Under the pieces are notes generated by a model. It did no database searches and was not told where the DNA came from. It saw only the letters and a list, made by a program, of their open reading frames with translations. A program made the translations under genes and the position numbers. This document shows positions 3,878-51,496 of a stretch of 64,000 bases of DNA, piece by piece. The number at the start of each line of letters is the position of its first letter. Positions within the stretch are counted from its first letter, which is position 1. Source of the stretch: a virus (lineage: Duplodnaviria > Heunggongvirae > Uroviricota > Caudoviricetes); IMG/VR virus record IMGVR_UViG_2778261574_000002, one strand, 5' to 3'.

Positions 3878-3894
3878 CAATACATTAGAGCAAT
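3878..3894 (-). promoter_or_regulatory. C1 operator-like 17-mer (14/17 match)
   Basis: CAATACATTAGAGCAAT on the + strand against AAATTTATTAGAGCAAT; located upstream of the lpa start. Confidence 0.4.
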
Positions 3895-3895
3895 T

Positions 3896-4939
3896 TTATC
3901 TAACGCTCGACGAGTGACTTGTGATAGCGCCGACTCCAAGCGCGTAATCAAAGAACAATCGTTGATGCATCGCCAGCCTACCGTGCGTCTTCTCCCAATT
4001 ATCGCGGTCACGCTCAATATCACGCTGGCATGACTGGCACAGAGGAATTGCGTAAATGTCATGCGCGCATAATCGACTATGACGAACGATATAAGGCGTA
4101 ATGTGAGCGCCAGCTCCCGCCGCTCCACACCCACAGCATGGACGGGAAGCAACAAAGTCCATGTACTCAGGTAATTTTAGCGATTGCAGTTTTGGTATTT
4201 TGAAATGCGCCATGCCAGGGTCGGAGTCAACATCCACAGAGCATACTTTTGCACGCATCGGCGCGGCGCGTTCTTCCATCATCTGAACATATGCTGTAGC
4301 GCGATCGTCATACGGGCGAATATCTGCCTCTTTCAGAGGTCCGCTATCCTGCGTTGCGGCTTTCATCTTATTTATTGATATACGGCAAACTTCTTCCGGC
4401 ATCAGGTGCATCATGTTGCGCATGAAAGCCCACCAGCACAGTTCCTGAATACTTAAATCATGGCCATCTGAAAGCCCCATTTCCTGACGGGCGACATCCA
4501 GTATCCAGTTAACGCGATTATTATGCAGCGTTTCTTTCAGCTCATTAAAACCACGCATCCGGTAATGGTTATCGTGATGCCAGCACAACAACACCGCGCT
4601 ATTGTCTCGTTCAGCGTGGACAATATGGTTGTCACACCAACTACGATCTGCGGCCTGGCATTGACCCTCTTTCCTACGCAACCACGCCACCAGCGCGTCA
4701 ATTCCACCAATACGGCGAAACAGTTCATCGCTGTTAAAAAACGGCTGCAACGCCTCATTTGTTGCCATAGTTTGCTCGGAAACAACGAGGCCGTCGTCCA
4801 TGTGCTCGATTAACTCACGCGGCACCGGCTCCATAATAAATTTACGGCCAGCCTCCACCAGCTTTCTGACTTCCTGATCCACTTTGAATGTGGCGACGCC
4901 AAGCTCTTTTTGTACAAAGGGAGTAATTACGGCTTTCAC
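3896..4939 (-). CDS. hypothetical protein with Cys/His-rich C-terminal motif (pdcB position)
   Basis: 347 aa; GAAGGTG ribosome-binding site; C-terminal CCGCG..H..C..H..CQSCQ cluster suggests a zinc-binding or nuclease-like domain. Confidence 0.55.
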
Positions 4940-4966
4940 ATCACACCTTTCATCACTGATTGGGCT

Positions 4967-5146
4967 TTATCTGCTGCCCGGCATTCTCTGTTTAAGCACA
5001 ACCATTTCCTGACGGCATAACACAGCAATAGCGGTCCTGGCACCAATTTGCTTACCAACCAGGTATTGCTTTACCTCGCGGCGACTCACGCCATCAAGAA
5101 GCATCTTTAACGCTCTACGGGACAATTTGTTGTATTTACGTGCCAT
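4967..5146 (-). CDS. small basic HTH-like protein
   Basis: 59 aa from an internal ATG (MARKYNKLSRRALKML..) preceded by GGAG; starts 5 nt after the doc stop. Confidence 0.4.
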   Translation of the reverse strand: MARKYNKLSRRALKMLLDGVSRREVKQYLVGKQIGARTAIAVLCRQEMVVLKQRMPGSR

Positions 5147-5150
5147 TGAT

Positions 5151-5531
5151 CTACTCCGCAGAACCATACAATCTACGTAACGTGGCGGCGACAGTAGATA
5201 CAGATATCTCTCCGGTCGCAGCCCCTACGGTAAGGTCTACCAGTTCAGGGGAGTCAAATACCTGCACCCCGTTACGGCGTAGAAATAACAGCGCACTGTT
5301 TAGCGCGGTACGCTTATTGGCATCATTGAATATATGCCCTCTCGCTGTAGCCACCAGGTAGGTGGCGGAGACTTCGAAAAGGTCGGTGATCTCTTCGTAG
5401 GCAACTCTGGCCTGAACTCTCCCGATAATGGCCTCTGCCCTACCCGGATCAGACATTCCCGGCAGGCCGCCGTAGCGGCTTATATTCGCATCATGAAGCG
5501 CAACAAGTTCTTCCGGTGATATATGTCTCAT
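5151..5531 (-). CDS. doc: Doc toxin (Fic-family)
   Basis: 126 aa, [36 protein letters not shown].. recognised as P1 Doc; start overlaps the phd stop (ATGA). Confidence 0.95.
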
Positions 5532-5752
5532 TATCGGTTAACCAGTTCCTTGTTGGTGGAGTCCAGGGTGTCAAACAGGGATGCAAATTCAGCATCCAGC
5601 GCCGCTTTTTTGTAGGCTTCGAAAGTAGCCTTGCTGACAATTACTGCTGGCTCACGGCCTCTGCGGGTGATTTCAACCTCTTCCCCGGCTTCAACATTGT
5701 TGAGCACTTCAGAAAGGTTGCCACGCGCGGTACGGAAGTTAATGGATTGCAT
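5531..5752 (-). CDS. phd: Phd antitoxin
   Basis: 73 aa from [39 protein letters not shown]..; recognised as P1 Phd; the ORF-track start at 5758 adds two residues. Confidence 0.95.
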
Positions 5753-5760
5753 AAACACCT

Positions 5761-5783
5761 CGTGTACTCGTTATGTGTACACA
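5761..5783. promoter_or_regulatory. candidate Phd/Doc autoregulatory operator (GTGTAC palindromes)
   Basis: CGTGTACTCG..TGTGTACACA immediately upstream of phd. Confidence 0.45.
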
Positions 5784-5824
5784 ATTATAAACTTCACAGG
5801 CATAAAGCACCAGCACTTTGCAGC

Positions 5825-6214
5825 TTAAATAACCGGACAATCATCAAATTCCCCACTTCGGGCATCATTGATGACATGAGTGATCACACCAAAAACAGCA
5901 TTACTGCCCGTGTATCCATCGTCATCTACTGGTAACGCCTCTTTCTTCCCGGTGCTTAAGTCCTCCAGGTGCTGGCGCGGATACTTCCTGTATCTCTTTA
6001 TGCGATATTCACCCTCCATAGCGCACACAAGCAGAGAACCATCAACCGGAGTAAGCGAGGAATCAACCACCAGCAAAGCTCCCTGCAATATTCCCTCACG
6101 GTGATGGCTATCAGCTGCCCGCATGAAGTAGGTCGCTGAAGGATGTCTAATTATCTGCTGATCAAGAGAAATTCGGCTTTCAACATAATCCGCCGCAGGA
6201 GAAGGGAAGCCCAT
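5825..6214 (-). CDS. humD: UmuD-like S24 peptidase (HumD-like)
   Basis: 129 aa; LexA/UmuD-type C-terminal domain (..GDSM-like region, ..YRIKRY..); LexA box 20 bp upstream. Confidence 0.8.
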   Translation of the reverse strand: MGFPSPAADYVESRISLDQQIIRHPSATYFMRAADSHHREGILQGALLVVDSSLTPVDGSLLVCAMEGEYRIKRYRKYPRQHLEDLSTGKKEALPVDDDGYTGSNAVFGVITHVINDARSGEFDDCPVI

Positions 6215-6234
6215 AGCGTTTTACCTCAATGATA

Positions 6235-6250
6235 CTGTTTATTCATACAG
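6235..6250. promoter_or_regulatory. LexA (SOS) box
   Basis: CTGTTTATTCATACAG (CTG-N10-CAG), embedded in TACTG..CAGTA, upstream of humD. Confidence 0.7.
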
Positions 6251-6337
6251 TATACATTGAAAAGGCATAGTTTGTGAAAGCGGGGTTTGTAGGCGCGCCA
6301 CGCTGGGGGCTAATCACATTTCTCCCCCATCTTGCCG

Positions 6338-6589
6338 TTATTTTTTTGGTGCATCCTCGTTCTGATACACCGGATCGCTCCCTTTTGGCAACTGGAGGCT
6401 TAACTGCCGGTAGTGCCGTAGCCGTTCCATGAAATAGGCGCGCAGGTTTTCCGGTTGCTCACGGGCCACCTGCTCTGCAATCACAGGTATATTCAGCCGT
6501 TCTTTGTAAGCAACGCCGCTGGCGGCAAGGTCTACGTTCACCTTGTCTCGCTCTTCCTGGCTTTTAGCTGCTATATTTCGATCTGACAC
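6338..6589 (-). CDS. hot: homolog of DNA polymerase III theta subunit (Hot-like)
   Basis: 83 aa; [39 protein letters not shown] resembles HolE theta. Confidence 0.8.
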
Positions 6590-6621
6590 AAGAAACCTCC
6601 AGGAGTTAGTGGATCAGGCAC

Positions 6622-6972
6622 ATGCACAATAACGTTCTCAATGTTAGCCGTTCAATTCAGACAATCAGAGACTGCACCAGTGTGGTGGCATCAATCCCAT
6701 TGCGAAACAGCATAGACGAACTGCAAATTCGTGTATTGAATCCGAATCAGGCTAATAAGCAATTGCGCTTTATTTTGACGCTGAAAAGTGAAACAGAGGG
6801 GATAAAGCACAGCGTAAAAGTGTTTTCTGAGGCCATTCTGCTTAATGGGAAGCTCCGGCATCTGGTAAGGCCAGAACGTCAATATCCTGACGTCCTGGCG
6901 CGTGAAAAAGACCTTCTTTCTGAAGTTCAGGATAGGGTGATCGATTTCGTCAAATGCTATCCCCTGCATTGA
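6622..6972 (+). CDS. hypothetical protein (strand assignment ambiguous)
   Basis: 116-aa ORF fully overlapping a 92-aa minus-strand ORF (6691-6969); + ORF has the more protein-like composition but a weak ribosome-binding site. Confidence 0.25.
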   Translation: MHNNVLNVSRSIQTIRDCTSVVASIPLRNSIDELQIRVLNPNQANKQLRFILTLKSETEGIKHSVKVFSEAILLNGKLRHLVRPERQYPDVLAREKDLLSEVQDRVIDFVKCYPLH

Positions 6973-7241
6973 GGGCAGGTGTTCCCTTCCGCAAAGTAGG
7001 GAAAATTGCTATCAAGTTCATCACACCATCTGCGATGGTCGTAGCACCAAAACGCCTCCCACGGTGCACGGAAATACTTCATCCACCAGGACACTCGATC
7101 AGGTATATCTGCTGGTGGCAGTTCTTCTGGCAATAATTTGCCTGATAATTCCCTTTCCGCCCGCGACAGCATTTTTTTGAGGCTCGCGTTCTCTTTTTCA
7201 AGCTCATCTACGCGCACCTGTAATTCAGCTTTCGTTGGCAT
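6957..7241 (-). CDS. hypothetical coiled-coil protein
   Basis: Internal start MPTKAELQVRVDELEKENASLKK with AGGTGG ribosome-binding site; overlaps the stop of the upstream gene. Confidence 0.4.
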   Translation of the reverse strand: MPTKAELQVRVDELEKENASLKKMLSRAERELSGKLLPEELPPADIPDRVSWWMKYFRAPWEAFWCYDHRRWCDELDSNFPYFAEGNTCPQCRG

Positions 7242-7875
7242 GGTCCACCTCATGCTTTTCAGCCACCAGCGGCAATAAAGCCCTGGCCATCTTATGAACC
7301 AATAGTGCATCAATAATGCCAAGCGTATGCCCCGGCTTAATGTTTAATGCCGCCTCAAGGCGACACCTTTCCAGGCCACTTTTCTCGGCTTGTTTATGAT
7401 GATCTGGTGTAATAACGTCGCCCAAAACACGGCTTATTCTTTCTCGTAATTGCTGGGTGCCAGCACACTTGATCGCTGTATCGTGGAGACGGTTAACCAG
7501 TTCGCGATAAACATGCGGCTTAATTCGGATACGTTCACCGGTGACGCCCTTTCCTGGTGCTGGCACCGAACTATCCGGAATATCCGGATAGTTGCCAGCC
7601 TCGTAAGCTACCCGCAGCCAGTGCATGAATGTTTCAGTGGACACACAACCACAGTCCACATCGATTTTCCCGCGTTGCTGTTCCAGCCAATGCTCAAAAT
7701 TCAATCTACACGTATTACTTTCATGTTGCTCTTTTTGTCTCAAGGCCAGCATCTGCTGGGCTATTTCCAATACTTCATCTGCCGTATATCCAGCACCGTG
7801 ACCATACATTTCGATACGGGAAATAATCTCTGATATGCGCTCTTCAGTGATTCTGGTCATTTCTTTTTGCGCCAT
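7225..7875 (-). CDS. hypothetical protein, 216 aa
   Basis: Long ORF on the operon strand; no recognisable motif. Confidence 0.5.
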   Translation of the reverse strand: MAQKEMTRITEERISEIISRIEMYGHGAGYTADEVLEIAQQMLALRQKEQHESNTCRLNFEHWLEQQRGKIDVDCGCVSTETFMHWLRVAYEAGNYPDIPDSSVPAPGKGVTGERIRIKPHVYRELVNRLHDTAIKCAGTQQLRERISRVLGDVITPDHHKQAEKSGLERCRLEAALNIKPGHTLGIIDALLVHKMARALLPLVAEKHEVDHANES

Positions 7876-8231
7876 TTCTTTTCACATTCCTTAGTCCATT
7901 TTTCAATGTTCATTTTGGCAATATCAGTCATTCCATCACCTAAGAAATACTTTTTCCGGTACGTCTTGCACTTAAACCACACTACAACAGCCACCAACCA
8001 GAAAATAAAAGGCCATACAGCAATACCAACTCCAGCCGCGATAAAGCCCAATAGCCATAAATGAAGCTCTCCAACTTCTGTTTGCGGCAATATTCTTAAA
8101 GAATTAAACAGCAGACTGAAGGAATGGTCGTATGCATTGGCGGTATAAGACATGCAATCCATATAATTAAAGTCATAGCCTGCGGCTGCCGCCCATAATG
8201 GGCGGTCAAGAAAATGTTTTAGTGTCATCAT
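7857..8231 (-). CDS. hypothetical membrane protein
   Basis: 124 aa; hydrophobic stretch LWLLGFIAAGVGIAVWPFIFWLVAVVVWF; AT-rich coding sequence. Confidence 0.45.
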   Translation of the reverse strand: MMTLKHFLDRPLWAAAAGYDFNYMDCMSYTANAYDHSFSLLFNSLRILPQTEVGELHLWLLGFIAAGVGIAVWPFIFWLVAVVVWFKCKTYRKKYFLGDGMTDIAKMNIEKWTKECEKKWRKKK

Positions 8232-8237
8232 ATAAAT

Positions 8238-8627
8238 TTAAGGTTCAGACCAGTTATCTTCAATAGCAATGCTTAATCTTTGTAGCCATTCTGCTAATTT
8301 CAGCATTGCTTCTCTTTCGCTTAAACCACGAGGAAAATCATCAAGCGAAATTGTTGGCTTGAAGCCCCCGTAATTATCCATTTCAACAGTCAGATTTTGC
8401 TCCAGCACGGTATTCCTTACGCGGCTATTGTGCCGAAGCAAATATACTGAACGTGATTTATTGGTTTTATGGTCAAACTGATATTCGGTAAGTATCATCT
8501 GGCTTTTGCCATGACTATTACCTCTCCACATACCTACCTCACTTAATAAAACAACTCCATGCGTAGTTGATGATTTTTTCCTACGTAATATAAATCTGCA
8601 CTCCGGCAGTAAAACCAAAGCCAACAA
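8238..8627 (-). CDS. hypothetical protein
   Basis: 129-aa ORF, start uncertain; AT-rich. Confidence 0.4.
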   Translation of the reverse strand: MLALVLLPECRFILRRKKSSTTHGVVLLSEVGMWRGNSHGKSQMILTEYQFDHKTNKSRSVYLLRHNSRVRNTVLEQNLTVEMDNYGGFKPTISLDDFPRGLSEREAMLKLAEWLQRLSIAIEDNWSEP

Positions 8628-8709
8628 TTGCTGAAAAAATCAAAACATTTACTTTTGACATTATAAATTTTCTCTCGGTGTCGTAGGTGATAGCACCATA
8701 ATTGATAAT

Positions 8710-8961
8710 TTAGTGAGTTAGCAGTTCCATTTTTTGGATGATTTCCGCATGAGCATCATCGTTATCAACACTTAACTCGTTTAATGCCTCTCGCACCACA
8801 TCAACTTCTTCTGGTTGGAAGAAATCATCTCGGTAGTCACCAAATAGAACCGAAACAAGCCTGCCACCAGCAACATCAAGATTGGCGCTAACAGGTGGCT
8901 CTTTGCCATCCTCAAATTCGACTACAAAAGTTATTTTTCCCATCGTTACCACCAGCGACAA
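8710..8961 (-). CDS. small acidic hypothetical protein
   Basis: ~80 aa (MGKITFVVEFEDGKEPP..). Confidence 0.4.
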   Translation of the reverse strand: MSLVVTMGKITFVVEFEDGKEPPVSANLDVAGGRLVSVLFGDYRDDFFQPEEVDVVREALNELSVDNDDAHAEIIQKMELLTH

Positions 8962-9028
8962 ATTGAATACAAACCCAGTGCTGCCGCCATCACAATTCCT
9001 ACCGTTGCGAATGCTTCAGGCCAGCTCG

Positions 9029-9361
9029 TTATCTCACCTCCAGTCTCCATACCGCCTGACCAATCCGGCTGGCATGGGTATCTTTGGATACTGTTCCGTC
9101 TTTAGCCATCTCCATAAGAATTTTGCGCAAATCTGCCGAACGCCATTCTTCATCAGGAAATTCCTTCTCCATTGCCAACCGCAGATTCCAGGTTGCCATC
9201 CTGAATGGATATTCCCCGCCGAGAGCTTTATCTTGCAGGGCAGCCCGGGAACGCATCACCTGCAAAACCTTCTCTTTTACATTCATCATTTCGCCTCCTG
9301 CGGCGGTTCTGGTAGCGGCATCCAGTGTGACGGTTTCCACGACGCACCAGGAATTATCCAA
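9029..9361 (-). CDS. hypothetical protein
   Basis: 110-aa ORF; overlaps the 3' end of the upstream gene. Confidence 0.4.
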   Translation of the reverse strand: MDNSWCVVETVTLDAATRTAAGGEMMNVKEKVLQVMRSRAALQDKALGGEYPFRMATWNLRLAMEKEFPDEEWRSADLRKILMEMAKDGTVSKDTHASRIGQAVWRLEVR

Positions 9362-10401
9362 CCATCATTAGCGTCAGGATACCCCGGTATGTAAGTCGCC
9401 CATTTCATTCGCCAGTCACCTTTCCTATCAAACTCCCTGGCAACAAGAACGGCTGTTTTGCTATCCGGCATTCGCTCACTACAGCTTATCCAACCATCCG
9501 GAGTTACCGGAACTTGCGGAATGGCTGTCTGCTCTCGAACGTCATTAGGCGCTATAGGTTCTGCTGCCAACTGACTGGCATATTTGTTAATGGTAACGAT
9601 AAGCTCTTGCTCGGCCTCATCCAGACAATCACCGATACCTCGCCTGTCACCGTCAAAATCATCGAAATCGGCACGAATCTTGGCAACCTCCTGGATTGCG
9701 GACAACACTTCACCAGGAATAAGCCGAGAGTTGCCCGATAGTGCATTCTGCTCCAGTGATGCTTTTACAAACCACGCTGCCTGAACTATAACGCCATGAA
9801 TCCAGCGCAAATCAGCATCGCGATCTTTCTTTTTCATCTTTTCGCCACTTAAGGCCTTGCTTATGTGGCTGCGTACCAGGTCTTCATGTAATTCCTTCGC
9901 CTCCTCAATGGTGAAACCACCAGGCAGAAGAGCCGGAGTTACCGGAGAGCTGGTTGACGCTTCCGGGATTTCCCGAAAATTATTGGTTGACGAATTCTTG
10001 CTTTCCCGAAAGTTTCCGGACTGAAGCATGGCGGTGCGGCAGGCGTTCCATATTTCGGCAGCAATATCGCGCTCGCTATCGGTTAATTTGTACGTGGAAA
10101 CATAGCCAGAGAGCATTTCTACGTTTTCCGGAGTTGCTTCTTCCGGCACTACCGGCGCTGGCGGGGCGATGCGTCCAAGCAACTTATTTACCTCTTTCGC
10201 CATCGCGTCATATTTATCTAAATGGCGATTAGCTTCTAAGCAGACTCGGCGCATCTGATCTGAGTTAACTCGTTTAACTGGATCTGCTTCCAGCGATGCC
10301 AGCGCAATCCGTGCCAGTTCCATTTGTTCACCACGGGTAAGCCCGTTTTCAAGCGGATTTTTAATGAACAATTCAATACGTTCTTTGGTAATAGTGGTCA
10401 T
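9286..10401 (-). CDS. hypothetical protein with DUF551-like C-terminus
   Basis: 371 aa; C-terminal ..WKPSHWMPLPEPP; shares an internal module (APPxPVVPEE..WNACRxAMLQ) with the 11114-11509 product. Confidence 0.55.
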   Translation of the reverse strand: MTTITKERIELFIKNPLENGLTRGEQMELARIALASLEADPVKRVNSDQMRRVCLEANRHLDKYDAMAKEVNKLLGRIAPPAPVVPEEATPENVEMLSGYVSTYKLTDSERDIAAEIWNACRTAMLQSGNFRESKNSSTNNFREIPEASTSSPVTPALLPGGFTIEEAKELHEDLVRSHISKALSGEKMKKKDRDADLRWIHGVIVQAAWFVKASLEQNALSGNSRLIPGEVLSAIQEVAKIRADFDDFDGDRRGIGDCLDEAEQELIVTINKYASQLAAEPIAPNDVREQTAIPQVPVTPDGWISCSERMPDSKTAVLVAREFDRKGDWRMKWATYIPGYPDANDGWIIPGASWKPSHWMPLPEPPQEAK

Positions 10402-10411
10402 GTGTTACTCC

Positions 10412-10675
10412 TTAACCCGCAGTGCTTTCAACTGATGAGGGGAACAAAATCTTTTCATCAAACCCTGCATTCATATCATGAACAGCAACACACCAATCCA
10501 TCGACGAACGATTATCAAGAGCCTCCATGATTTCATCCATGCGGCGTAGGTCATACAGGTAAATGCTTTTATCGCCAATGGTGTAAAAGCCAATTTTTTT
10601 CGGTGATGGACAGCGATCAAGAACTTCCTGTAATTCGTTCAACCATGCCCGTTCTTTTTTTGTCAAAGTTGCCAT
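10412..10675 (-). CDS. hypothetical protein
   Basis: 87 aa from MATLTKKERAWLNELQ with AAGGAAAA ribosome-binding site; starts 1 nt after the upstream stop. Confidence 0.45.
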   Translation of the reverse strand: MATLTKKERAWLNELQEVLDRCPSPKKIGFYTIGDKSIYLYDLRRMDEIMEALDNRSSMDWCVAVHDMNAGFDEKILFPSSVESTAG

Positions 10676-10676
10676 A

Positions 10677-10895
10677 TCAGTTTTCCTTATACGGATTAAT
10701 TTTATTGTGCAGTGTGTTGAACGACGCCCATACCACGTCGTTATACAATTCAATAACTGGTTCAATTATTTTCCCGATTGCCCAGACAAAAATTAGCGGG
10801 GATATCGGTATCATCAACACGATAAACAGAATGAGAAACAAAAGTTCTGTCGCTCTACTTTTTCGCGGATATTCTTTTCTGAATAATGTAGGCAC
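10677..10895 (-). CDS. small membrane protein (GTG start)
   Basis: 72 aa; hydrophobic LLFLILFIVLMIPISPLIFVWAIG; preceded by AAAGGAGAGTGAT. Confidence 0.4.
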   Translation of the reverse strand: MPTLFRKEYPRKSRATELLFLILFIVLMIPISPLIFVWAIGKIIEPVIELYNDVVWASFNTLHNKINPYKEN

Positions 10896-10896
10896 A

Positions 10897-11112
10897 TCAC
10901 TCTCCTTTGTTGCTTCTCAAAATTTTATGCCCTGGCGCAAAAGCACGCGTTTTGTCGACGCTTATTCGCCACCCATCTTTACGTGCCTCTTTTGCACAGC
11001 CAGCCCATGACGTACCGATATACTCACCGAAGTCTGGCACTGGATATACACCTTCCGTACACTGGCGGCAGTCACAATAGAGATGCATGGTGTAACTTGC
11101 GGCAATAGCCAT
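10897..11112 (-). CDS. Cys-rich hypothetical protein
   Basis: 71 aa from MAIAASYTMHLYCDCRQCTEG; preceded by the recurring AAAGGAGAGTGAT junction. Confidence 0.45.
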   Translation of the reverse strand: MAIAASYTMHLYCDCRQCTEGVYPVPDFGEYIGTSWAGCAKEARKDGWRISVDKTRAFAPGHKILRSNKGE

Positions 11113-11113
11113 A

Positions 11114-11509
11114 TCACTCTCCTTTACCCTGAAGCATGGCGGCGCGGCAGGCATTCCAGCCTCTCACCTCTGCAATAGCGGCAACAGCATCGACCGCGTA
11201 CATTTTAAGAGGGTTAGGCATTGGTTTTTCTTCAGGTACTACTGGCACTGGAGGGGCGGCATAAACAGGAATAACGTCCGCTTGCTCTTTATTACTTTCA
11301 TCCGTTAAAGCCCAGAATAATTTCCCGGCCGGATGTTTGAAAATATAAGCAACTGGTTCTGCGCTATCAGCTTCGCGCCGCTTCTGTAGCTCTGCTGCCA
11401 TTGCTCTCACGACTTCAACTGGTGCCCTTGCAGCAAACTCTATGTTGGTGATCAGCTCATTAAGATATTGCTCGCTGGGATACTGTTTCTTATTGGTAAT
11501 AGTGATCAT
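11114..11509 (-). CDS. hypothetical protein
   Basis: 131 aa; ATG overlaps the upstream stop (ATGA); shares a module with the 9286-10401 product. Confidence 0.5.
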   Translation of the reverse strand: MITITNKKQYPSEQYLNELITNIEFAARAPVEVVRAMAAELQKRREADSAEPVAYIFKHPAGKLFWALTDESNKEQADVIPVYAAPPVPVVPEEKPMPNPLKMYAVDAVAAIAEVRGWNACRAAMLQGKGE

Positions 11510-12021
11510 GCCGCGTTTCCTTCTTTCTTATTAACAATTACACCGTCATATATTTCATTAAGGTGCCCTCTCAACTCCATGCGCCTTAATGCAGATAACA
11601 TGTAATCGCATTCAACCTGCTTATTCCCGGTAAATGGCTTATCGTCAGGATTACCCCAACAGCAATTACCCGTGGGCCATCCATGTACTTTCCGTACTCT
11701 TCCGTTAACAACGTGAAGTAATCCCCAGCCGGGAGGTAAATCCTCAATTGAAATAATTCCCGGCTCACTAATAAAGAATCGCCAGTCGCCCATGCCAAGT
11801 GAGGGATTTTTACGGAAACGCTTTTTTCTATCTGCCAACAAGTCAGCACGAGAACACTTCGCCTCTATCAGGCATGATGCTGAATTTCTGAATCCCATAG
11901 CATCTGGCTGTTCTCCGGTACTGGTTACAGCAACAAAGCGGTCATGAAAGCAAACCTTGAACCCGTTGCGCTTAAGGAACTTGTACGCAATCTGACAGAG
12001 TTCGTGGTGTGTTAACGCCAT
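11506..12021 (-). CDS. PD-(D/E)xK nuclease-like protein
   Basis: 171 aa from MALTHHELCQIAYKF; D..EAK motif (..DAMGF..CLIEAKCS..); preceded by AAAGGAGAGTGAT. Confidence 0.5.
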   Translation of the reverse strand: MALTHHELCQIAYKFLKRNGFKVCFHDRFVAVTSTGEQPDAMGFRNSASCLIEAKCSRADLLADRKKRFRKNPSLGMGDWRFFISEPGIISIEDLPPGWGLLHVVNGRVRKVHGWPTGNCCWGNPDDKPFTGNKQVECDYMLSALRRMELRGHLNEIYDGVIVNKKEGNAA

Positions 12022-12022
12022 A

Positions 12023-12583
12023 TCACTCTCCTTTGATGCGAATGCCAGCGGCGCGGGAATCATTCCATCGCTTTACTTCTTCACGAATTACGTCAATGCA
12101 TTCTTTCGAATCCATTAGGTAATCTTCATCAAAAAGACGTTCCTGTTCGTTTTCTATCGCAACAATGATTGCTTCAACTAACTTTTGTTCCTGAGAATCA
12201 CTTTCTAACTCTGCTATGCGCTTACTCCCATCCGAGATAACACCTTCGTAATATTCACGCTGTTCGTTGAGTTTTGATTTTGTCTCCTCAAGCTCAACGC
12301 GCAGCTTCCCTACCGTTAGCGCAATATCCTCGTTCTCCTGGTCGCGGCGTTTTATGTATTGCTGGTTTCTTTCCCGTTCATCCAGAAGCGCCAAGACGGT
12401 AGCCGGATTGGCTGCGGCGATGAATTCAGCATCACGAGATTCGTTTTCACTGAACACCATAGCTATTTGCTCATGGTTTATGCCGTCAGTGGAGTAAATC
12501 TCATCGTCGAATTCAACAGCCCACTTACCTTTCGTAGCCTTCTCTGCCGCCTCACGCAGTGCCTGATAGTCAATCTTGCTCAC
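12023..12583 (-). CDS. Ea22-like protein (paralog 1)
   Basis: GTG start after AAAGGAGG, overlapping the upstream TGA; N-terminal ..SKIDYQALREAAEKATKG and AEFIAAANPATVLALL motifs. Confidence 0.5.
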   Translation of the reverse strand: MSKIDYQALREAAEKATKGKWAVEFDDEIYSTDGINHEQIAMVFSENESRDAEFIAAANPATVLALLDERERNQQYIKRRDQENEDIALTVGKLRVELEETKSKLNEQREYYEGVISDGSKRIAELESDSQEQKLVEAIIVAIENEQERLFDEDYLMDSKECIDVIREEVKRWNDSRAAGIRIKGE

Positions 12584-13281
12584 TGGTTGCCTCCTTTGCG
12601 AATCTGTTCCGCCCATTCTTCAAGGGATTTCTCCGCATATTCACCGGACAGGCCATCAATCGGGTACGGTTCATTAGCCAACTCTTCTTTCGCTGACAGA
12701 ATCATGCGCGTAACGTCGAAAACTTCACGCAAAGACTTATTGATAAATCCGTGATTGAACGCAGCAGCAAGACGGCTGGCGGTATAGTTAATCCCCTCGT
12801 TGCGTGCTTCCGCACGAATTTCAGCCAGAAAAGCATCGGTAGCTGGAGTTTCGCTGTGGTGTAGGGCATCGTTGATAATCATTGCAGCAACTCCGGCCTG
12901 CCCTGCATCCGTGACCGACACATGATCAAGAGTTACAGCCATTGCGTGTTTCAGCCCAGCGTTCTCTGCCACCAGAGCCGCGAGCTTAGTCTCAAGCGGT
13001 GCTATTCGGCACATAGCATCAATATTTGTGTCCTCCAGGCGCTTAATTTCACCAAGTAGCTCCAGTGCAACCTTTGGGTTGAATGCGGCAATATAACGAG
13101 CGTTGTTCTCTGCGTTTTTCAGTCCATCAAAGCCGGTCCATTTGATAACGTCTTCACATCGTTTATCACCGGGCGTATGCACCGCATACGTACCAGTACC
13201 CGGCGAAATAAATGCGACCCATTCGCCCTGTGTTGCCTGTTTTGCTATCTCACGCAGTGCCCGGTAATTAATTTCGCTCAC
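12580..13281 (-). CDS. Ea22-like protein (paralog 2)
   Basis: GTG start after AAAGGAGG, overlapping the upstream TGA; ..SEINYRALREIAKQATQG and ARYIAAFNPKVALELL motifs. Confidence 0.5.
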   Translation of the reverse strand: MSEINYRALREIAKQATQGEWVAFISPGTGTYAVHTPGDKRCEDVIKWTGFDGLKNAENNARYIAAFNPKVALELLGEIKRLEDTNIDAMCRIAPLETKLAALVAENAGLKHAMAVTLDHVSVTDAGQAGVAAMIINDALHHSETPATDAFLAEIRAEARNEGINYTASRLAAAFNHGFINKSLREVFDVTRMILSAKEELANEPYPIDGLSGEYAEKSLEEWAEQIRKGGNQ

Positions 13282-13517
13282 TGGCTGCCTCCTTTGCGGA
13301 GTTGCGCTTCGATGCACGAAAAAAAAGACTCCCGAGTATGACTGTTAAGAGCTGGTGCGAACGCCGCGTTAAGAACGGCAGCATCACAGCCGTCATCAAT
13401 ATAGAGCGCAATTTTTTTCTCCAGGCGCGCTTTGGCTTGCTGCAACTGCATACCCCGGCACGCACGCGGGATATAATCAGCAATTTGAGCGATAGCTTTT
13501 TCGTTCTGTTTAAACAT
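13278..13517 (-). CDS. hypothetical protein
   Basis: 79 aa; C-terminus ..QLRKGGSQ encodes the next gene's ribosome-binding site. Confidence 0.45.
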   Translation of the reverse strand: MFKQNEKAIAQIADYIPRACRGMQLQQAKARLEKKIALYIDDGCDAAVLNAAFAPALNSHTRESFFSCIEAQLRKGGSQ

Positions 13518-13713
13518 GCTTCACCTCGATAGGCTTGATGGTGTCTAACAGCAGTCGACGGCGCGTATTTTCTGCAAAGTGGCGGCGTCCGGTATCTTTG
13601 TGGTAAAACTCATTTTTGCCGACGACCCACATCCGCTCTGTTTGGTGCAGTTTTTTTACCTGCGGCCCGTCTTTGGTGATCACGGTGCCGGTATGGGTTT
13701 TTACGATTGTCAT
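13510..13713 (-). CDS. hypothetical protein
   Basis: 67-aa ORF on the operon strand. Confidence 0.4.
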   Translation of the reverse strand: MTIVKTHTGTVITKDGPQVKKLHQTERMWVVGKNEFYHKDTGRRHFAENTRRRLLLDTIKPIEVKHV

Positions 13714-13796
13714 GCCACTACCTCTTCGAACAGATGAACGAGACAGGCCGATGTTCGTCCACCTGAAAAACTGACGATTTGATGCATACTCACGGT

Positions 13797-14525
13797 TTAT
13801 TCCTGAATGCGCTTAAACTCGATTACCCACACCCAGGGATTAGCGTTCCAGCTTTCTTCACCATAGATGGATTCCCACAGGCGCTGGAACGCAACCTTGG
13901 CCATTGCGAAATCCCCCTTGGGAGTAAGGAATGTTCCCGGGTGATCAGGAAGCAAACTTCCAGCAGGCGGAACGCCCTCAGCCCTTGCATCGCATTCGCT
14001 GATATCGTTCAACCGTTCAACGCGCACGTTGGTAATTTCCAACAGAATGCGTGATGCCCATCGCGGCATGTGAATTGATGGACGCCACCCACCATCAAAC
14101 TTTTCATTCACAGTGTGAGGTTTCCAGTCGGCATCATCGGGTATCGACCATAAGCCGTAATCACCAGGTTTTTGCTCGCAACTGGCCCGATAAATCCTTG
14201 CTGCGTTCTTCTCATCGCCACGACAAAGGTTGTCGTTCCAGTCCACACTGCAACCATCCTCATTGCCTAATATCGCCCATGTTTCACGAACCCAAATTCG
14301 ATCGCCGACGATACCAAATGGGCAATTGAAAACACTGCTTACACCATCAGCCCCGTACCACTGAAAACCTGCACCAATTTTTCTAACCATCACTGGTGCT
14401 TCTGGACCAACTTCCGCAGGCTGATTTTTCATTATCCGCCGCGTCTGCGTTTTCCTTCCTTCGAGGATGGCCCGGACCATCTCATCGTTAAAAATCATGC
14501 CGCGCTCTTTCACTTCGCCTTTCAT
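13797..14525 (-). CDS. ASCH-domain-like protein
   Basis: 242 aa; N-terminal MIFNDEMVRAILEGRKTQTRR resembles the ASCH fold signature. Confidence 0.5.
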   Translation of the reverse strand: MKGEVKERGMIFNDEMVRAILEGRKTQTRRIMKNQPAEVGPEAPVMVRKIGAGFQWYGADGVSSVFNCPFGIVGDRIWVRETWAILGNEDGCSVDWNDNLCRGDEKNAARIYRASCEQKPGDYGLWSIPDDADWKPHTVNEKFDGGWRPSIHMPRWASRILLEITNVRVERLNDISECDARAEGVPPAGSLLPDHPGTFLTPKGDFAMAKVAFQRLWESIYGEESWNANPWVWVIEFKRIQE

Positions 14526-14703: not shown

Positions 14704-14720
14704 AGATTTATTAGAGCAAT
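14704..14720 (-). promoter_or_regulatory. C1 operator-like 17-mer (16/17)
   Basis: AGATTTATTAGAGCAAT on the + strand. Confidence 0.55.
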
Positions 14721-16795: not shown

Positions 16796-16861
16796 ATTGC
16801 TCTAATAAAAAACGTGATGAGTGTACATCACGTTTTAAAAATATGGAATTATTAGAGCAAT
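16796..16861. promoter_or_regulatory. inverted pair of C1 operator-like 17-mers flanking a palindrome
   Basis: ATTGCTCTAATAAAAAA (16796-16812) and GGAATTATTAGAGCAAT (16845-16861), with AACGTGATGAGTGTACATCACGTT between them. Confidence 0.5.
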
Positions 16862-41283: not shown

Positions 41284-41370
41284 TCGCCATTCAAATTTCA
41301 CTATTAACTGACTGTTTTTAAAGTAAATTGCTCTAAAATTTCAAGGTGAAATCGCCACGGTTTCACCTTG
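41284..41370. other. parS partition site
   Basis: Hexamer TCGCCA (41284-41289, 41352-41357) and heptamers ATTTCAC/ATTTCAA/GTGAAAT around an AT-rich bend-like core. Confidence 0.75.
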
Positions 41371-44860: not shown

Positions 44861-44869
44861 GGAAATACA

Positions 44870-46302: not shown

Positions 46303-46313
46303 AAGGATTTTAT

Positions 46314-46823
46314 ATGGGGCACAATAATACTAAGGGAAACCGTAAATTTATTAAGGGCCGCTATACTGCCAACGCGGCCAAAGGCGAACGACTGGTATCT
46401 TCTGAATTCCAGCTCACTTTTGCAGGCCATGAAGATATCAGCGTACTGGTTCGCACGTCGCAAATTCCTGAAATGACCCGCGAGGATGTGGAGGACTATG
46501 GTCCGAATGGTGTGAAGTTCAACCAGCACGGTCCAATTCGAAACTCTGGGGAAATCCAGGTCCAGTGCGTGGAGACTATCGAAGGCGATATTCTTCAGTT
46601 CATTAAAGATCGCATTGCGGCGAAGGACTATGTTGATATCACGATGGCTGCGACCCCTGAATCCAAATCTTCCGGGGTTAACGCTGTGACAAAAGCTGCT
46701 ACAACAATTGAAATGTTGGACTGCAAAATCTACAGTGATGCAATCGACTTTAGTACCGAAGATGTGACTGCTGCTGTGCGCCCGTCACTTCGTATCGTCT
46801 ACAACTGGATTGAGTGGGATTAA
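46314..46823 (+). CDS. hypothetical structural protein
   Basis: 169-aa ORF; followed by a strong terminator. Confidence 0.5.
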   Translation: MGHNNTKGNRKFIKGRYTANAAKGERLVSSEFQLTFAGHEDISVLVRTSQIPEMTREDVEDYGPNGVKFNQHGPIRNSGEIQVQCVETIEGDILQFIKDRIAAKDYVDITMAATPESKSSGVNAVTKAATTIEMLDCKIYSDAIDFSTEDVTAAVRPSLRIVYNWIEWD

Positions 46824-46842
46824 GAGTCATCCCTTGTATTTT

Positions 46843-46867
46843 AAAGCTCCTTCGGGAGCTTTTTTTA
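46843..46867 (+). terminator. rho-independent terminator
   Basis: AAAGCTCC-TTCG-GGAGCT followed by TTTTTTT. Confidence 0.7.
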
Positions 46868-46958
46868 TAACTATTTTATATAAACATGCATCGATAACAT
46901 TGTCTGGAGTTTTATGTTAGATTATTAATGTTCTAATAAACTACAATTATTGAGGTAG

Positions 46959-47591
46959 ATGTTTGTGCCTGTACTGTTAAAGGGGGACTCTAAAATGGCT
47001 GTGATTCCAATGTCGTACTCCCCGGGTACTGTTGCTCGTCGATTTTCGATCCTGGACGGAGTTACCATCCAGGGTGTGCTTTACCAGGTTATATGGGATT
47101 CCAAAACCCCATTTGCAGCTGTAATAGAGGCTGCGCCTTCTATTATCGATGGTGATATGCGCCATAAGGTTGTCGCTACTCTTGAACTTCAACGTCGCCC
47201 GCAGCTTGAAGGCGTACTGGTAAGGAAGTTCTGGGAGGATAGCGATGTTGCCCAGATTGAAGGTATCGTGGTTGATGGAACCGTCCGGGATGTCGGTTTA
47301 GCTACTTTTGTTTACGAAACCGTAGCCTCAAAAGCTGGTGTTGTTTTGCTCAGTGATAATGAGCAATACGAAGGTGGAAAAGCTCTTTGGCAACACATCG
47401 CCCGTCGCTCTTCCGAGCTAAAAGTGTTTATCCTTGACACCGATGCCGCTCAGTATTACCCGTTTGACGGCGAACGTGTTTGCTATGACGGGGTAAGTAT
47501 TCCTGAATCCGAGATATGGAGTGAACACCCAGATCGAAGTAAGCATGGGGTTGTTCTGGTCGCTGAATCCATAATTGGAAATGCGGCATAG
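46959..47591 (+). CDS. hypothetical protein
   Basis: 210-aa ORF, start uncertain. Confidence 0.45.
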   Translation: MFVPVLLKGDSKMAVIPMSYSPGTVARRFSILDGVTIQGVLYQVIWDSKTPFAAVIEAAPSIIDGDMRHKVVATLELQRRPQLEGVLVRKFWEDSDVAQIEGIVVDGTVRDVGLATFVYETVASKAGVVLLSDNEQYEGGKALWQHIARRSSELKVFILDTDAAQYYPFDGERVCYDGVSIPESEIWSEHPDRSKHGVVLVAESIIGNAA

Positions 47592-47773
47592 CAGTAAAAA
47601 ATTCCTTGCTCCTTAAAAGGGGAGAGGGTTAATCTACGTATGCTAAGCATAGAGATGGCCTCAGATTAATGTTAAGCGTCTTGCAGGACGCGTAATGTTA
47701 TCTGGGGCTTTCTTCTATCTGCTTTTCGGGTAATGCCTGAAGCAGATAGCCTCAAGCACCCGTAACGATTGTA

Positions 47774-48100
47774 TCAATGTCTGGCTTTTTTTCTATAGAA
47801 ATCACCAGGAAGGGTGAATATCCACATCAGAAGAAATGTTGCAGCAAACATGATCCCTAATGGCCAGACCGCGCCAAAGAAAATCCATACTAAGATCTCC
47901 TCTGTTCGTTCTTTGCGGTCGATATCGACAAGCATTCTTCGGCTGATCATGTATACACAGAAGCCAATACAAACATATCCTGCAAAAGCGATCGCTAACT
48001 GTAAAAAATCAGATTGCATCTCCGACCTCAAACTGAAAACGCCAGGTGACTCCAGATTAGAGCAATCTATCACCCTCTGAATCCTGCCGGTATACCCCAT
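47774..48100 (-). CDS. small membrane protein
   Basis: Two hydrophobic helices (..FAGYVCIGFCVYMI.. and ..FGAVWPLGIMFAATFLLMWIF..); start uncertain. Confidence 0.35.
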   Translation of the reverse strand: MGYTGRIQRVIDCSNLESPGVFSLRSEMQSDFLQLAIAFAGYVCIGFCVYMISRRMLVDIDRKERTEEILVWIFFGAVWPLGIMFAATFLLMWIFTLPGDFYRKKARH

Positions 48101-48915
48101 TGTTCGTTATCTTTATTTTTGGCTAATACCGCATTAAGAGCTTCGTTTACTGTCATGCAATGCGGCAGATTATCGAAGTTTGATATCCCGCCAATATCAG
48201 GAGAACGCTTGTCCTTCAGGTAAGCATATTTCCGCGCTGCCGCCTCTACTTTCTGCTTGAACTCATGTTTTTGAGCGCGTTTTTTGGATAACCGCAGATT
48301 GTCAGCCTTTGCTTTTGCCTCGGCGATCCATGAAGTCAGTTTTTTGAGGCTGGTCGTTCCGGCACCGCCGGAAACTGATCTTTTTGTTTTTTTAATTTCT
48401 GACTTCTTATTCTTTATTGCCACGTCATCCTGACAGGGGGAGGGGGTATCATTTTGACATGGGGGTGTGGATAAAAAATCAAATAAAGCCAATGTCTTAG
48501 CGAGAACAGCTTTAACCTTGGTTGCCGCTGAAGAGATCTTTAATTTGCTTTCAATCAGCGCATTTTTGGCTTGTTGTGCGAAGGCCAAAAAGGATGGCGT
48601 AAACCGGTACAGGTTAGCGCGACGTTCACGGTGATCGCCGATAACAATCTCTACAGACAGAATTCCTTTGTTTACAGCTTCACGGAATGCACGAACGACG
48701 GTTGATTGACTATAACCAGTTTCTGCCGCGATCAGGCGGTGAGGCTTGTGAATGAAGTATTCACTGGTTGTTGCCGCGAGATTTGCACATTGCGACAGGA
48801 TATGCCCGGCGCTACGGGATAGACCGGAGTGTGTTACAAAGCAGGCCAATTCATAGCCAGAAAAAGTAAAATCGCTCATCGTTATACAGCTCAGGAAAGT
48901 GACTTTAGCCAGCAT
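48070..48915 (-). CDS. repL: lytic replication initiator RepL-like
   Basis: 281 aa, immediately downstream of kilA; assignment by size, order and operator-controlled operon. Confidence 0.75.
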   Translation of the reverse strand: MLAKVTFLSCITMSDFTFSGYELACFVTHSGLSRSAGHILSQCANLAATTSEYFIHKPHRLIAAETGYSQSTVVRAFREAVNKGILSVEIVIGDHRERRANLYRFTPSFLAFAQQAKNALIESKLKISSAATKVKAVLAKTLALFDFLSTPPCQNDTPSPCQDDVAIKNKKSEIKKTKRSVSGGAGTTSLKKLTSWIAEAKAKADNLRLSKKRAQKHEFKQKVEAAARKYAYLKDKRSPDIGGISNFDNLPHCMTVNEALNAVLAKNKDNEQWGIPAGFRG

Positions 48916-48944
48916 TACAATGCTGGTGGTTCTTACTACGTCTG

Positions 48945-49745
48945 TTAGCGCATTGCCGCGACAGGTACCAGCACACCAGCGTCAAGCAATCGCTTCATCA
49001 GCCACTGCTGACCTTTGCCGGTTATACGAGTCGTGAAAGAAATCCTGCTTCCGTTGCTTGTATCGATCACGGTTTCTTTAAGGGTGAAATACCCACGGGA
49101 TATGTATTCTTGTTTGGGGACGTTCCTGCGTTCACCGGTTGCGATCAGAATTCCGTTATCACGCAACCAGGTGAAGAGATAGTTTTGGCCCAGGCCGAGC
49201 ACTTTGGCATAGTTGCCGATTAGAACCCCGCTGGCGGTAGCAACGCGTTCGGCGAATTCGACTTTAGGTGCATCCATAAGCATTTTTTGCTCCAGCCGTT
49301 GCTTTTGCTCTGCCAGGTCGGCAGCCAAACGGAGAGCTTCAGGGAGACTCTGCGGAATAGCAGGTTGTAATCTTCCAGCTCGATAGTCGATAAATGTCTG
49401 GTTTACCTTCAGCCGAAACGCGGGAGAAATCCAGCCTGCGTACTCCACTGCGAGCAATTCATGGGCAAAAGTGCCGCCGCCACGGCCTTCGAACGAAACT
49501 ATGCAATTCTGCATAGTTTCTTTTTCAAGCTCTTCGATGAGCTGTTTAGCTGACAGCGTTCTTAGCCATTGAGCTGGCGCTTTATGGGCACCGAGTCCGC
49601 TCGCTCTGTGTAGAGCATTAAGGTTGTAACGGCCAGCGCGGTCGGTCGTAATTTCAACACCACAAATAACGGGCAGAGTGGTTGAAGGATCGACATTTTG
49701 ATGAAGGTTTGATATATTCATATCCGCATTGAATGTTTGTTGCAT
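48945..49745 (-). CDS. kilA: KilA-like protein
   Basis: 266 aa; C-terminal domain shared with the antirepressor (..PEALRLAADLAEQK..GKGQQWL..). Confidence 0.75.
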   Translation of the reverse strand: MQQTFNADMNISNLHQNVDPSTTLPVICGVEITTDRAGRYNLNALHRASGLGAHKAPAQWLRTLSAKQLIEELEKETMQNCIVSFEGRGGGTFAHELLAVEYAGWISPAFRLKVNQTFIDYRAGRLQPAIPQSLPEALRLAADLAEQKQRLEQKMLMDAPKVEFAERVATASGVLIGNYAKVLGLGQNYLFTWLRDNGILIATGERRNVPKQEYISRGYFTLKETVIDTSNGSRISFTTRITGKGQQWLMKRLLDAGVLVPVAAMR

Positions 49746-49814
49746 TTTTTCTCCAAATTTGCATCAACCTTCAATCACCAGCTCGAAATGGTGATTCTTT
49801 GCACTTAGAAAACA

Positions 49815-49831
49815 AAATTTATTAGAGCAAA
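49815..49831 (-). promoter_or_regulatory. C1 operator-like 17-mer (16/17)
   Basis: AAATTTATTAGAGCAAA on +; upstream of kilA. Confidence 0.6.
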
Positions 49832-49909
49832 TTTTTCTGACCCGATCCAGATCGGGTTGGACGATCTGCTCAGAAACCTGCCAGTTTGCTGGCAGGTTTT
49901 TTTCTTTTG

Positions 49910-50947
49910 TTAACCTATTGCTACTGGTTTTAACAAACCAGCATCAAGTAGCTTGCGAGTTAACCACTGCTGGCCTTTACCCGTTAATTGGGGCGTCAGC
50001 CGTATCTGGTAGCCATTTTCATCATCCAGCACCACTTCTTTCACCGTGAAATACCCGGCGTTAATGTACTGCTGGCGCGGTACGTTTTTGCGCGCACCAA
50101 AAGCCATGAGAATGCCGTTCTGGCGCAACCATGAGAAAAGGGCGTTTTGCTTAAGTCCAACGACCTTTGCAAAGTTCCCGATCAGGATTCCATTAGCCGC
50201 TGATACCCGGTCGGCAAAATCGACTTTAGGGGCTGCGGCCACCAGCTGTTGTTCCAACTGCATTTTCTGTTCTGCCAACTCGGCAGCCAGGCGTAGAGCT
50301 TCTGGTAATGTTTGGGGGATCGATGGGGCAGGGGAGTTTGCCTGCTGCAATTCTTCCAGTTTGTCGATCAGCGAACGGCGGACAGCTTTTGATTCGCGCG
50401 CGGCGACTCGCATGGCTTGTTTGAAAGTCATGGTTATGACAAGCATTGATGTTTTGTTCATTTTTTCCACTACACTTTTTGTGTAGTGCTCACCATCAAG
50501 CTCATCGAGTATTTTTTCTATGAATTTGTTGTTCCGAACCTCTGGTTCCCCACATAACTTACGCGCTTCATTGACCATCTTTAACAGTGTCAGGCTGTCG
50601 ATTGTGTCTCCGGTGTTGGGGATGATATTCACGGCTGGTGCTGGCGTAGCTGACGTAACAGGTGCTGTTTTTTCAACATTCAAATTATTACCGGTCATTC
50701 TATGTGCCTCCTTTCTCATTTCTGCTGCCACTGTTGCGTAACGTAGACGTCCTTGTTCAATCAAATAATCCCTGATCTCGGCTATCAGTAGCTTGTTGAT
50801 CACAGCCTTATCTGTTCGGGTATAAAAACGTCTGGTTATCATGAAATAGTTGGCAATTGCGCCGGGGATCTCCCGTGTCGGCATACAGGCAGTGTGCAGG
50901 GCGATCGCTTCGGCTATGTCATTACGGGTGACGAGAGGTTTTTTCAT
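49910..50947 (-). CDS. ant: antirepressor Ant
   Basis: 345 aa; shares the KilA C-terminal domain; start overlaps the icd stop (ATGA). Confidence 0.75.
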   Translation of the reverse strand: MKKPLVTRNDIAEAIALHTACMPTREIPGAIANYFMITRRFYTRTDKAVINKLLIAEIRDYLIEQGRLRYATVAAEMRKEAHRMTGNNLNVEKTAPVTSATPAPAVNIIPNTGDTIDSLTLLKMVNEARKLCGEPEVRNNKFIEKILDELDGEHYTKSVVEKMNKTSMLVITMTFKQAMRVAARESKAVRRSLIDKLEELQQANSPAPSIPQTLPEALRLAAELAEQKMQLEQQLVAAAPKVDFADRVSAANGILIGNFAKVVGLKQNALFSWLRQNGILMAFGARKNVPRQQYINAGYFTVKEVVLDDENGYQIRLTPQLTGKGQQWLTRKLLDAGLLKPVAIG

Positions 50948-51165
50948 AAACCCCCCTGAACGTCGGCAGAGAAGGGGAGGCTCCAGTAACTAAGTGAATT
51001 GCGCGAGTTAGTTGAAAAACGGGCAGTAAAAATGCAGGGGCCGTCAGGCAATTGAGAGCGTGCTTCGTCTTCTGTTGCTGCGATAACGAAGTGATAGTGG
51101 TGTTTTTTACAGGAATAGAAACGCCAGATGAATTCTTGGCGTGCGCAAGGATTGGCATTAACCAT
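50944..51165 (-). CDS. icd: Icd-like small protein
   Basis: 73-aa ORF coupled to ant; size and position match the cell-division-interfering gene of the immunity operon. Confidence 0.55.
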   Translation of the reverse strand: MVNANPCARQEFIWRFYSCKKHHYHFVIAATEDEARSQLPDGPCIFTARFSTNSRNSLSYWSLPFSADVQGGL

Positions 51166-51189
51166 AGTTACGGCCTCACAATCAGGTTT

Positions 51190-51400
51190 AACAACCTGCT
51201 ACCCGCTGTCAAACAGGTGGCAGGACGTGACAGGGTTGACAGACTGGCGATTGTGAAACCAGCAGGCCGAAGCCTCCCCATCACGCCCCACCATAATTTG
51301 GGCGTAACGCGGTTTAACGGACACAAAAATACCGCAATATCGGAAATCTGCGGTTGTCCGCACAATCATTCAGGCTGTCAAACCTGGTCGCAGAATTTGC
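51190..51400 (-). ncRNA. candidate C4-type antisense RNA region
   Basis: Leader between operator and icd with GCTGTCAAAC at 51205-51214 and 51374-51383 and a near-complementary GTTGACAG at 51235-51242. Confidence 0.35.
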
Positions 51401-51479
51401 TACGACGGCGGAACTATAAGCCTGAACGATTAAAAGGTCAATATGATGCGAAAAGATAGCATTCGTGACTTAAAAATAC

Positions 51480-51496
51480 AAATTTATTAGAGCATT
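51480..51496 (-). promoter_or_regulatory. C1 operator-like 17-mer (16/17)
   Basis: AAATTTATTAGAGCATT on +; upstream of the antirepressor operon. Confidence 0.6.

Follow-up and report, generated by a model that had tools for sequence, protein, structure and literature searches.

Sites scattered over a P1-like plasmid prophage of Escherichia very probably form the C1 operator network known from phage P1

We have analysed a stretch of viral DNA of 64,000 nucleotides (IMG/VR record IMGVR_UViG_2778261574_000002, Caudoviricetes; the whole stretch is referred to as the window), which, by its sequence, is a P1-like (Punavirus, IncY-type) plasmid prophage of Escherichia, reversed with respect to the P1 reference. 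Scattered over it are asymmetric 17-bp sites that are almost certainly the operators of the C1 regulon of this P1-type prophage. They were identified as C1 operators because they correspond base for base to features annotated as “phage repressor C1” (protein_bind) in the P1 record AF234172, which we have lifted onto the window by alignment. Every site has an annotated P1 operator as its orthologue: the window holds counterparts of all twelve P1 operators in the matching interval, eleven of which are intact, and ten sites are identical to the letter with the annotated P1 operators, the site formerly called Op83 differing by one base. The network as such is already known: the C1 operators of P1 were described in 1987 and are catalogued in the P1 genome annotation of 2004. 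According to PMC8546580, which cites Eliason & Sternberg 1987 and Lobocka et al. 2004 for the operators and also cites Heinrich et al. 1995, the P1 C1 protein binds 22 operators dispersed over P1 DNA, with the consensus ATTGCTCTAATAAATTT, and represses lytic genes; the same paper used a plasmid-borne consensus 17-mer as a C1 titrator and states that RepL and Lpa expression is under C1 control.

An earlier note on this DNA, made from the letters alone, had listed eight such sites with 14 to 17 matching positions out of 17. All eight are present (starting at 3878, 14704, 16796, 16845, 31148, 34670, 49815 and 51480), and seven of them are on the minus strand, preceding genes of that same strand, as had been said of most; 16796 alone is on the plus strand. 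The list was right but incomplete, since it lacked Op72b (31137), Op82 (20470), Op83 (19563) and the truncated Op55 (48050). A search of both strands of the 64 kb for the asymmetric 17-mer ATTGCTCTAATAAATTT with at most three mismatches yielded ten sites that conform to the consensus of the P1 C1 operators, including the unlisted 31137 (plus strand) and 20470 (plus strand), each matching at 15 of 17 positions. Only one copy is perfect (31148-31164, minus strand), and it does overlap a methyltransferase stop codon, as had been noticed: the TAA at 31157-31155 occupies operator positions 8-10 and terminates an open reading frame (ORF; 31155..33419, minus strand) for a protein of 754 amino acids with Dam and Dcm domains. 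The position-weight-matrix scan of the whole window that the earlier note had proposed as a check was carried out with a matrix built from 17 P1 operators (P1 34000-94800), and gave 11 sites of at least 18.1 bits.

Could such a set of matches be nothing but chance AT-rich words in an AT-moderate genome? The weaker matches (41327, 29186, 53285 and others) do occur near chance frequency, some 2.7 sites of at least 12 bits being expected by chance in the window. For the consensus search, however, 0.43 sites were expected from dinucleotide-preserving shuffles, none of 100 of which reached ten, and for the matrix scan first-order Markov simulations gave an expectation of 0.04 sites, 0 out of 200 simulations reaching 11 sites of at least 18.1 bits. 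The 9-mer core TGCWCTAAT occurs 13 times (1.18 expected), and 11 of these 13 occurrences are operators. Furthermore, the sites are all located at gene junctions. Chance, which we regarded as a barely conceivable origin, is refuted by the shuffling and simulation controls. A matrix made from only the five immC operators outside the window returned ten known operators as its ten top matches. Of the 11 intact sites, only Op72b lacks the core TGC(T/A)CTAAT, having TACACTAAT instead; the Op55 remnant has the core too.

The repressor itself is encoded on the same element as the operators. The window opens inside the c1 gene, the 3′ two thirds of which (1..567, plus strand) specify the C-terminal 188 amino acids of C1, i.e., residues 96-283; this fragment matches the NCBIfam model NF041318 (phage_rep_C1) at profile positions 96-283, and 186 of its 188 residues (99%) are identical to P1 C1.100. 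One of the two differences is a glycine at position 193, where P1 C1.100 has a cysteine; because G193 is common to the C1 of the window and to the C1 of another plasmid, C193 probably represents the c1.100 mutant allele. The proposal that one repressor governs many scattered operons is, thus, supported by the identity of the operators with those of P1, by the C1 gene at 99% and by the P1 literature.

In the order of the window, the first operator is Olpa (formerly Op94; 3878..3894, minus strand; ATTGCTCTAATGTATTG, 14/17), identical to P1 89904-89920. It lies 1 nt past the stop codon of pdcB, its 3′ end reaches into the -35 hexamer of Plpa, and it is predicted to control lpa (3355-3807, minus strand), the product of which is the late-promoter activator. 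OpmgT (formerly Op88; 14704..14720, minus strand; ATTGCTCTAATAAATCT, 16/17; identical to P1 84293-84309) begins with the last base of the pap stop codon and stands ahead of pmgT and a co-oriented 6.2-kb insert. OpmgRb (formerly Op86b; 16796..16812, plus strand; ATTGCTCTAATAAAAAA, 14/17; identical to P1 82201-82217) is located between the -10 hexamer of PpmgR and the start of pmgR, and is the inverted partner of OpmgRa (formerly Op86a; 16845..16861, minus strand; ATTGCTCTAATAATTCC, 14/17; identical to P1 82152-82168), which overlaps the predicted -35 hexamer of PpmgR and would control pmgR and pmgS. Between the inverted copies (16796-16861) there is an inner hairpin, AAAACGTGATG-TACACT-CATCACGTTTT, with a T run behind it, and this T run of the inner, terminator-like hairpin is also what makes up the odd AAAAAA 3′ end of Op86b; as RNA, the 77-nt region is predicted to fold into a single nested hairpin (-26.9 kcal/mol, z = -10).

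Two operators follow on the plus strand: Oppp (formerly Op83; 19563..19579; TATGCACTAATTAATTT, 13/17, 18.1 bits), which corresponds to P1 79435-79451 with one base different and is located between pmgM and pmgN, and O26 (formerly Op82; 20470..20486; ATTGCACTAATAATTTT, 15/17; identical to P1 78528-78544), in the divergent control region of pmgL (minus strand) and gene 26 (plus strand). Obanab (formerly Op72a,b; 31137..31164, both strands; identical to P1 68667-68694) is bivalent: it consists of two inverted 17-mers that share 6 bp in a palindromic arrangement, the perfect Op72a (31148-31164, minus strand) and Op72b (31137-31153, plus strand, 15/17). It spans the stop codon of dmt as well as the ban promoters, with the P1ban and P2ban hexamers inside, and would control the ban operon, that is, five tRNAs, ban (26629-27999, minus strand), which encodes a DnaB-family helicase according to a domain search, and dbn. 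Odmt (formerly Op68; 34670..34686, minus strand; ATTGCTCTAATAAATAT, 16/17; identical to P1 65145-65161) abuts the -35 hexamer of Pdmt and would control uhr-hrdC-dmt.

The counterpart of Orlf (formerly Op55; 48050..48066, minus strand) is a remnant located 3 nt past the repL stop codon. It retains the first 11 bases of the operator, ATTGCTCTAAT, which are followed by CTGGAG (11/17 in all), since the homology with P1 stops inside the operator and rlfA/rlfB are replaced. Judging by its sequence, it is probably non-functional. OrepL (formerly Op53; 49815..49831, minus strand; TTTGCTCTAATAAATTT, 16/17; identical to P1 49810-49826) covers the -10 hexamer of PkilA, in surroundings of which 130 of 131 bp are identical to P1, and would control the lytic replicon, kilA (48945-49745) and repL (48070-48915). 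Finally, the 3′ end of Oc4 (formerly Op51; 51480..51496, minus strand; AATGCTCTAATAAATTT, 16/17; identical to P1 48140-48156) overlaps the -35 hexamer of P2c4, and the site would control the immI operon (c4 RNA, icd and ant1/2). Downstream of it, Rfam models identify the C4 antisense RNA (51213-51298, minus strand) and its a1b1 targets (51367-51419, minus strand).

Around every site the window keeps the promoter hexamers of P1, in control regions that are 87-99% identical to those of P1, and by these P1-annotated hexamers the operators overlap or abut σ70 promoters of early or lytic units. One might ask whether the repeats are copies of one promoter module that RNA polymerase or some other factor recognises and that goes back to a common ancestry of the promoters. 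Several sites continue into T-rich sequence of a similar kind (tgtttttaa-like), which makes up the -35 hexamer and the spacer, and operator ends often supply the TTG of the -35 hexamer. However, the 17-mer occurs in both orientations and its position relative to the promoter is not fixed as that of a promoter element would be: it ends in the -35 hexamer in Olpa, Odmt, OpmgT and Oc4, covers the -35 hexamer in OpmgRa and Obana, covers the -10 hexamer in OrepL and lies, inverted, downstream of the -10 hexamer in OpmgRb. Moreover, in the diverged phage described below, the 17-mer is much better conserved than the hexamers and the flanks, and the P1 literature assigns the sites to C1. A promoter module is, therefore, very improbable as an explanation, and we retain C1 operators as the identity of the sites.

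Where the operator comes before the -35 hexamer (3878, 14704, 16845, 34670, 49815 and 51480), the 12 bases or so on its 3′ side have a T-rich pattern in common (for example tgatttttaaaac, tgttttttatgtc, gtatttttaagtc), and, therefore, the unit repeated at these promoters is longer than 17 bp.

For comparison with a more distant relative, we turned to Cronobacter phage JK004 (MZ188976), a diverged P1-like phage found by tblastn with C1; a search of genome contigs based on Lpa had given only three loci, near-identical and uninformative for divergence. JK004 has a C1 of 76% identity, DNA of about 71% identity where it can be aligned, and 54% GC. It carries more than 20 sites that match the matrix, with the same consensus, and some of these occur at the same junctions in this C1-bearing relative: pdcB|lpa, pap|pmgT, pmgQ|pmgR (a pair), pmgM|pmgN and upfC|uhr, as well as two ahead of ban. 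Taken over six orthologous sites, operator identity is 82% (84/102) as against 61% (303/498) for the 40-bp flanks; the individual scores are 14/17 for Op94, 16/17 for Op88, 16/17 for Op86b, 15/17 for Op86a and 14/17 for Op68, Op83 standing apart with 9/17. The Op86a/b pair has the same 49-bp offset as in the window, and its hairpin arrangement and spacing are kept. Unlike the window, JK004 has the core variants GTTCTAAT and ATTCTAAT at orthologous operators. In front of ban there are, in JK004, two operators in direct tandem arrangement, 28 bp apart, in contrast to the overlapping inverted pair in P1; the JK004 coordinates of these features are 29881-29925 and 53260-53276. We detected no homologues of kilA, repL or ant in JK004, although operator-like sites occur in that part of the genome.

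Several points weigh against the assignment of the sites to C1 in this element. The window leaves out the N-terminal 95 residues of C1 and the autoregulatory immC operators, which are situated to its left; the corepressor gene lxc is not within it either. Op55 is truncated, and Op83 is poorly conserved in JK004, with 9/17 at the same junction. An independent scan for σ70 promoters found Plpa (TTGCTA-16-TATTAT; 3880-3853, minus strand) and the P1c4 promoter (51441-51413, minus strand), but this generic scan located no promoter at the expected places around Op88, Op86, Op82/83, Op72 and Op68, its threshold being stricter than these operator-linked promoters, which fit the consensus weakly; the remaining promoters are taken from the P1 annotation, where they are partly marked as “predicted”. 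The role of C1 in this element is, moreover, read from sequence and from the P1 literature.

It could be argued that only sites with 15-17 matching positions work, and that 3878, 16796, 16845, 19563 and 48050 are vestigial look-alikes, unoccupied in vivo. The Op55 remnant, with just 11 bases left and a break in homology within the operator, would agree with this, as would Op83, which has 13/17 in the window in addition to the low score of its JK004 counterpart; also, the promoters beside Op86 and Op83 are among those that the P1 record calls “predicted”. On the other hand, Op94, Op86a and Op86b are 14-16/17 identical in JK004 amid flanks of about 60% identity, with the Op86 offset preserved; Op94 appears in the P1 record as the operator of an established promoter, Plpa, and the control of Lpa expression by C1 is stated in PMC8546580. 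As a general account we consider the vestigial interpretation unlikely. It probably holds for nothing but the Op55 remnant and perhaps Op83; the other lower-scoring sites, being orthologous in sequence to the named operators Op94, Op86a and Op86b, are not doubtful extras.

Binding and repression by C1, as well as their modulation by Lxc/Bof, Coi and Ant, are transferred to this element from the P1 literature. If C1 works here as in P1, the C1 of the element would bind each asymmetric 17-bp site in the lysogen and, where the site lies over or beside the -35 or -10 hexamer of a σ70 promoter, bound C1 would exclude RNA polymerase. About nine scattered early or lytic units would be silenced together in this way: lpa; pmgT and the genes that follow; pmgR/S; pmgN-ppp-pmgQ; pmgL/26; the ban helicase-tRNA operon (through the bivalent palindromic site); uhr-hrdC-dmt; the kilA-repL lytic replicon; and the immI operon c4-icd-ant, which encodes an antirepressor. 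Upon inactivation of C1 by Coi or Ant, all these units would fire together, and Lpa, the activator of all late promoters, could then turn on the late genes. According to PMC8546580, Coi and Ant1/2 antagonise C1 in P1, and Lxc strengthens its binding.

The element departs from P1 in a number of segments. At 46865-48066, a 1.2-kb segment takes the place of P1 rlfA, rlfB and pmgF, the break being exactly inside Op55, of which ATTGCTCTAAT is kept. The segment carries a PHROG-7522 ORF (46959-47591, plus strand) and a hok/sok-type module (Rfam sok at 47587-47761, minus strand), and the same segment is found in phages 673R5, RCS47 and SJ46. At 7606-13831, the pmgT/pmgU region contains a 6.2-kb insertion relative to P1, whose ORFs are all minus-strand and lie downstream of OpmgT/Op88; among them are two for Ead/Ea22-like proteins and one for a DUF551 protein. 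At 51732-53841, a segment of low GC content (36% over 52001-54000) stands in place of P1's sim superimmunity locus, with three plus-strand ORFs for 172 (with a sub-threshold match to PTP-like phytase), 168 and 357 amino acids (the last with a C-terminal SH3_3 domain), all belonging to PHROGs of unknown function. Among E. coli and E. fergusonii plasmids in PLSDB, 34 cover 80% or more of this replacement, and at least 12 of these have it at 97-100% identity. Behind the ban operator, five tRNA genes (28279-30478, minus strand; Met-type CAT, Ser-TGA, Thr-TGT, Tyr-GTA and Arg-TCT) separate Obanab from ban, at a position where P1 is annotated with three (Asn, Thr and Ile2), and the tciA-C/upl/plp region of P1 is partly replaced by a lipoprotein-like ORF (28382-29209; phrog_200). 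For the non-P1 ORFs, PADLOC gave no match to a defence system, and, apart from Ead/Ea22, DUF551 and SH3_3, PHROGs and Pfam searches led only to families whose function is unknown.

We also considered whether this lineage has recruited extra C1 sites in its non-P1 cargo, and whether Op55 may have been the crossover point at which rlfA/rlfB gave way to the hok/sok-bearing module. On the sequence evidence this appears doubtful; the chance that one breakpoint falls inside an operator is roughly estimated at 0.05. The two candidates were not accepted. The site AATGTTCTAATAAACTA at 46927 (plus strand, 13.4 bits) lies over a promoter-like TTGTCT-17-TATTAA just before the PHROG-7522 gene, but the region is about 98% identical in all relatives and, hence, uninformative, and JK004 has an unrelated gene in the analogous position. 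The site CTTGCTCTAATAATACA at 53181 (minus strand, 17.2 bits) lies within the SH3-domain gene found in place of sim; an O157 plasmid has a variant of this gene, 82% identical, in which the site is missing. Another match, 41327-41343 (ATTGCTCTAAAATTTCA, 12/17, 14.7 bits), is located in parS, its 3′ half being the ParB box-A-like ATTTCA; it is probably a coincidence, and the P1 record has no C1 operator annotated at that position. The match at 29186 was rejected, as it has the core only.

By megablast, the window matches Escherichia phage P1, RCS47, SJ46, P7 and related Punavirus members, with 96-99% identity over 70-83% of the query. Aligned directly, window 1-64000 corresponds to P1 from 93797 (base 1 of the window) downwards to 36422; the eleven blocks are collinear, 93-98% identical, and broken up by the replaced and inserted segments. 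C1 proteins of at least 95% identity are encoded on about 700 PLSDB plasmids, a large and well-sampled population, and the non-P1 segments recur, for example at 100% identity, in non-mobilizable IncY plasmids of about 95 kb from E. coli and E. fergusonii. The E. fergusonii plasmid NZ_CP057563 is 100% identical over 51500-53900 and differs from the window at the c1 end. In the collections searched, PLSDB included, there is no record identical to the window throughout, the best being about 99% identical over the first 9 kb. By its sequence, the window is one more mosaic variant within the population of P1-like plasmids.

For annotation, the sites would mark a P1-type plasmid prophage with an intact immunity circuit, and they delineate cargo inside C1-controlled units that would be silent in the lysogen and expressed on induction, such as the expanded tRNA set behind Op72 and the 6.2-kb insert behind Op88, whose genes would be under C1 control if they have no internal promoter. 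Resistance genes are commonly carried by P1-like plasmids in E. coli, and it is, therefore, of some applied interest to know which cargo is under the control of the prophage.

Compared with the C1 regulon of P1 (Op51-Op99), the window agrees in the consensus, in the gene junctions, in the way the sites overlap promoters, and in the bivalent ban operator that lies across the dmt stop codon. It differs from P1 in that Op55 is truncated by the replacement of the rlfA/rlfB module, and in the cargo behind two operators, namely the 6.2-kb insert (Op88) and five tRNAs instead of three, along with different genes (Op72); these differences, Op55 included, leave the kind of system unchanged. With the other P1-like plasmid prophages (P7, RCS47, SJ46 and the PLSDB plasmids mentioned above) the window has the backbone and the immC repressor in common, although none of them is identical to it from end to end. 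The LexA/SOS system likewise features a single repressor, dispersed operators that overlap promoters, and coordinated derepression. The likeness to C1 is an analogy only, with no homology between the systems: LexA binds as a dimer to palindromic boxes and is inactivated by cleaving itself, whereas the C1 sites are asymmetric and C1 is antagonised by Coi and Ant (PMC8546580).

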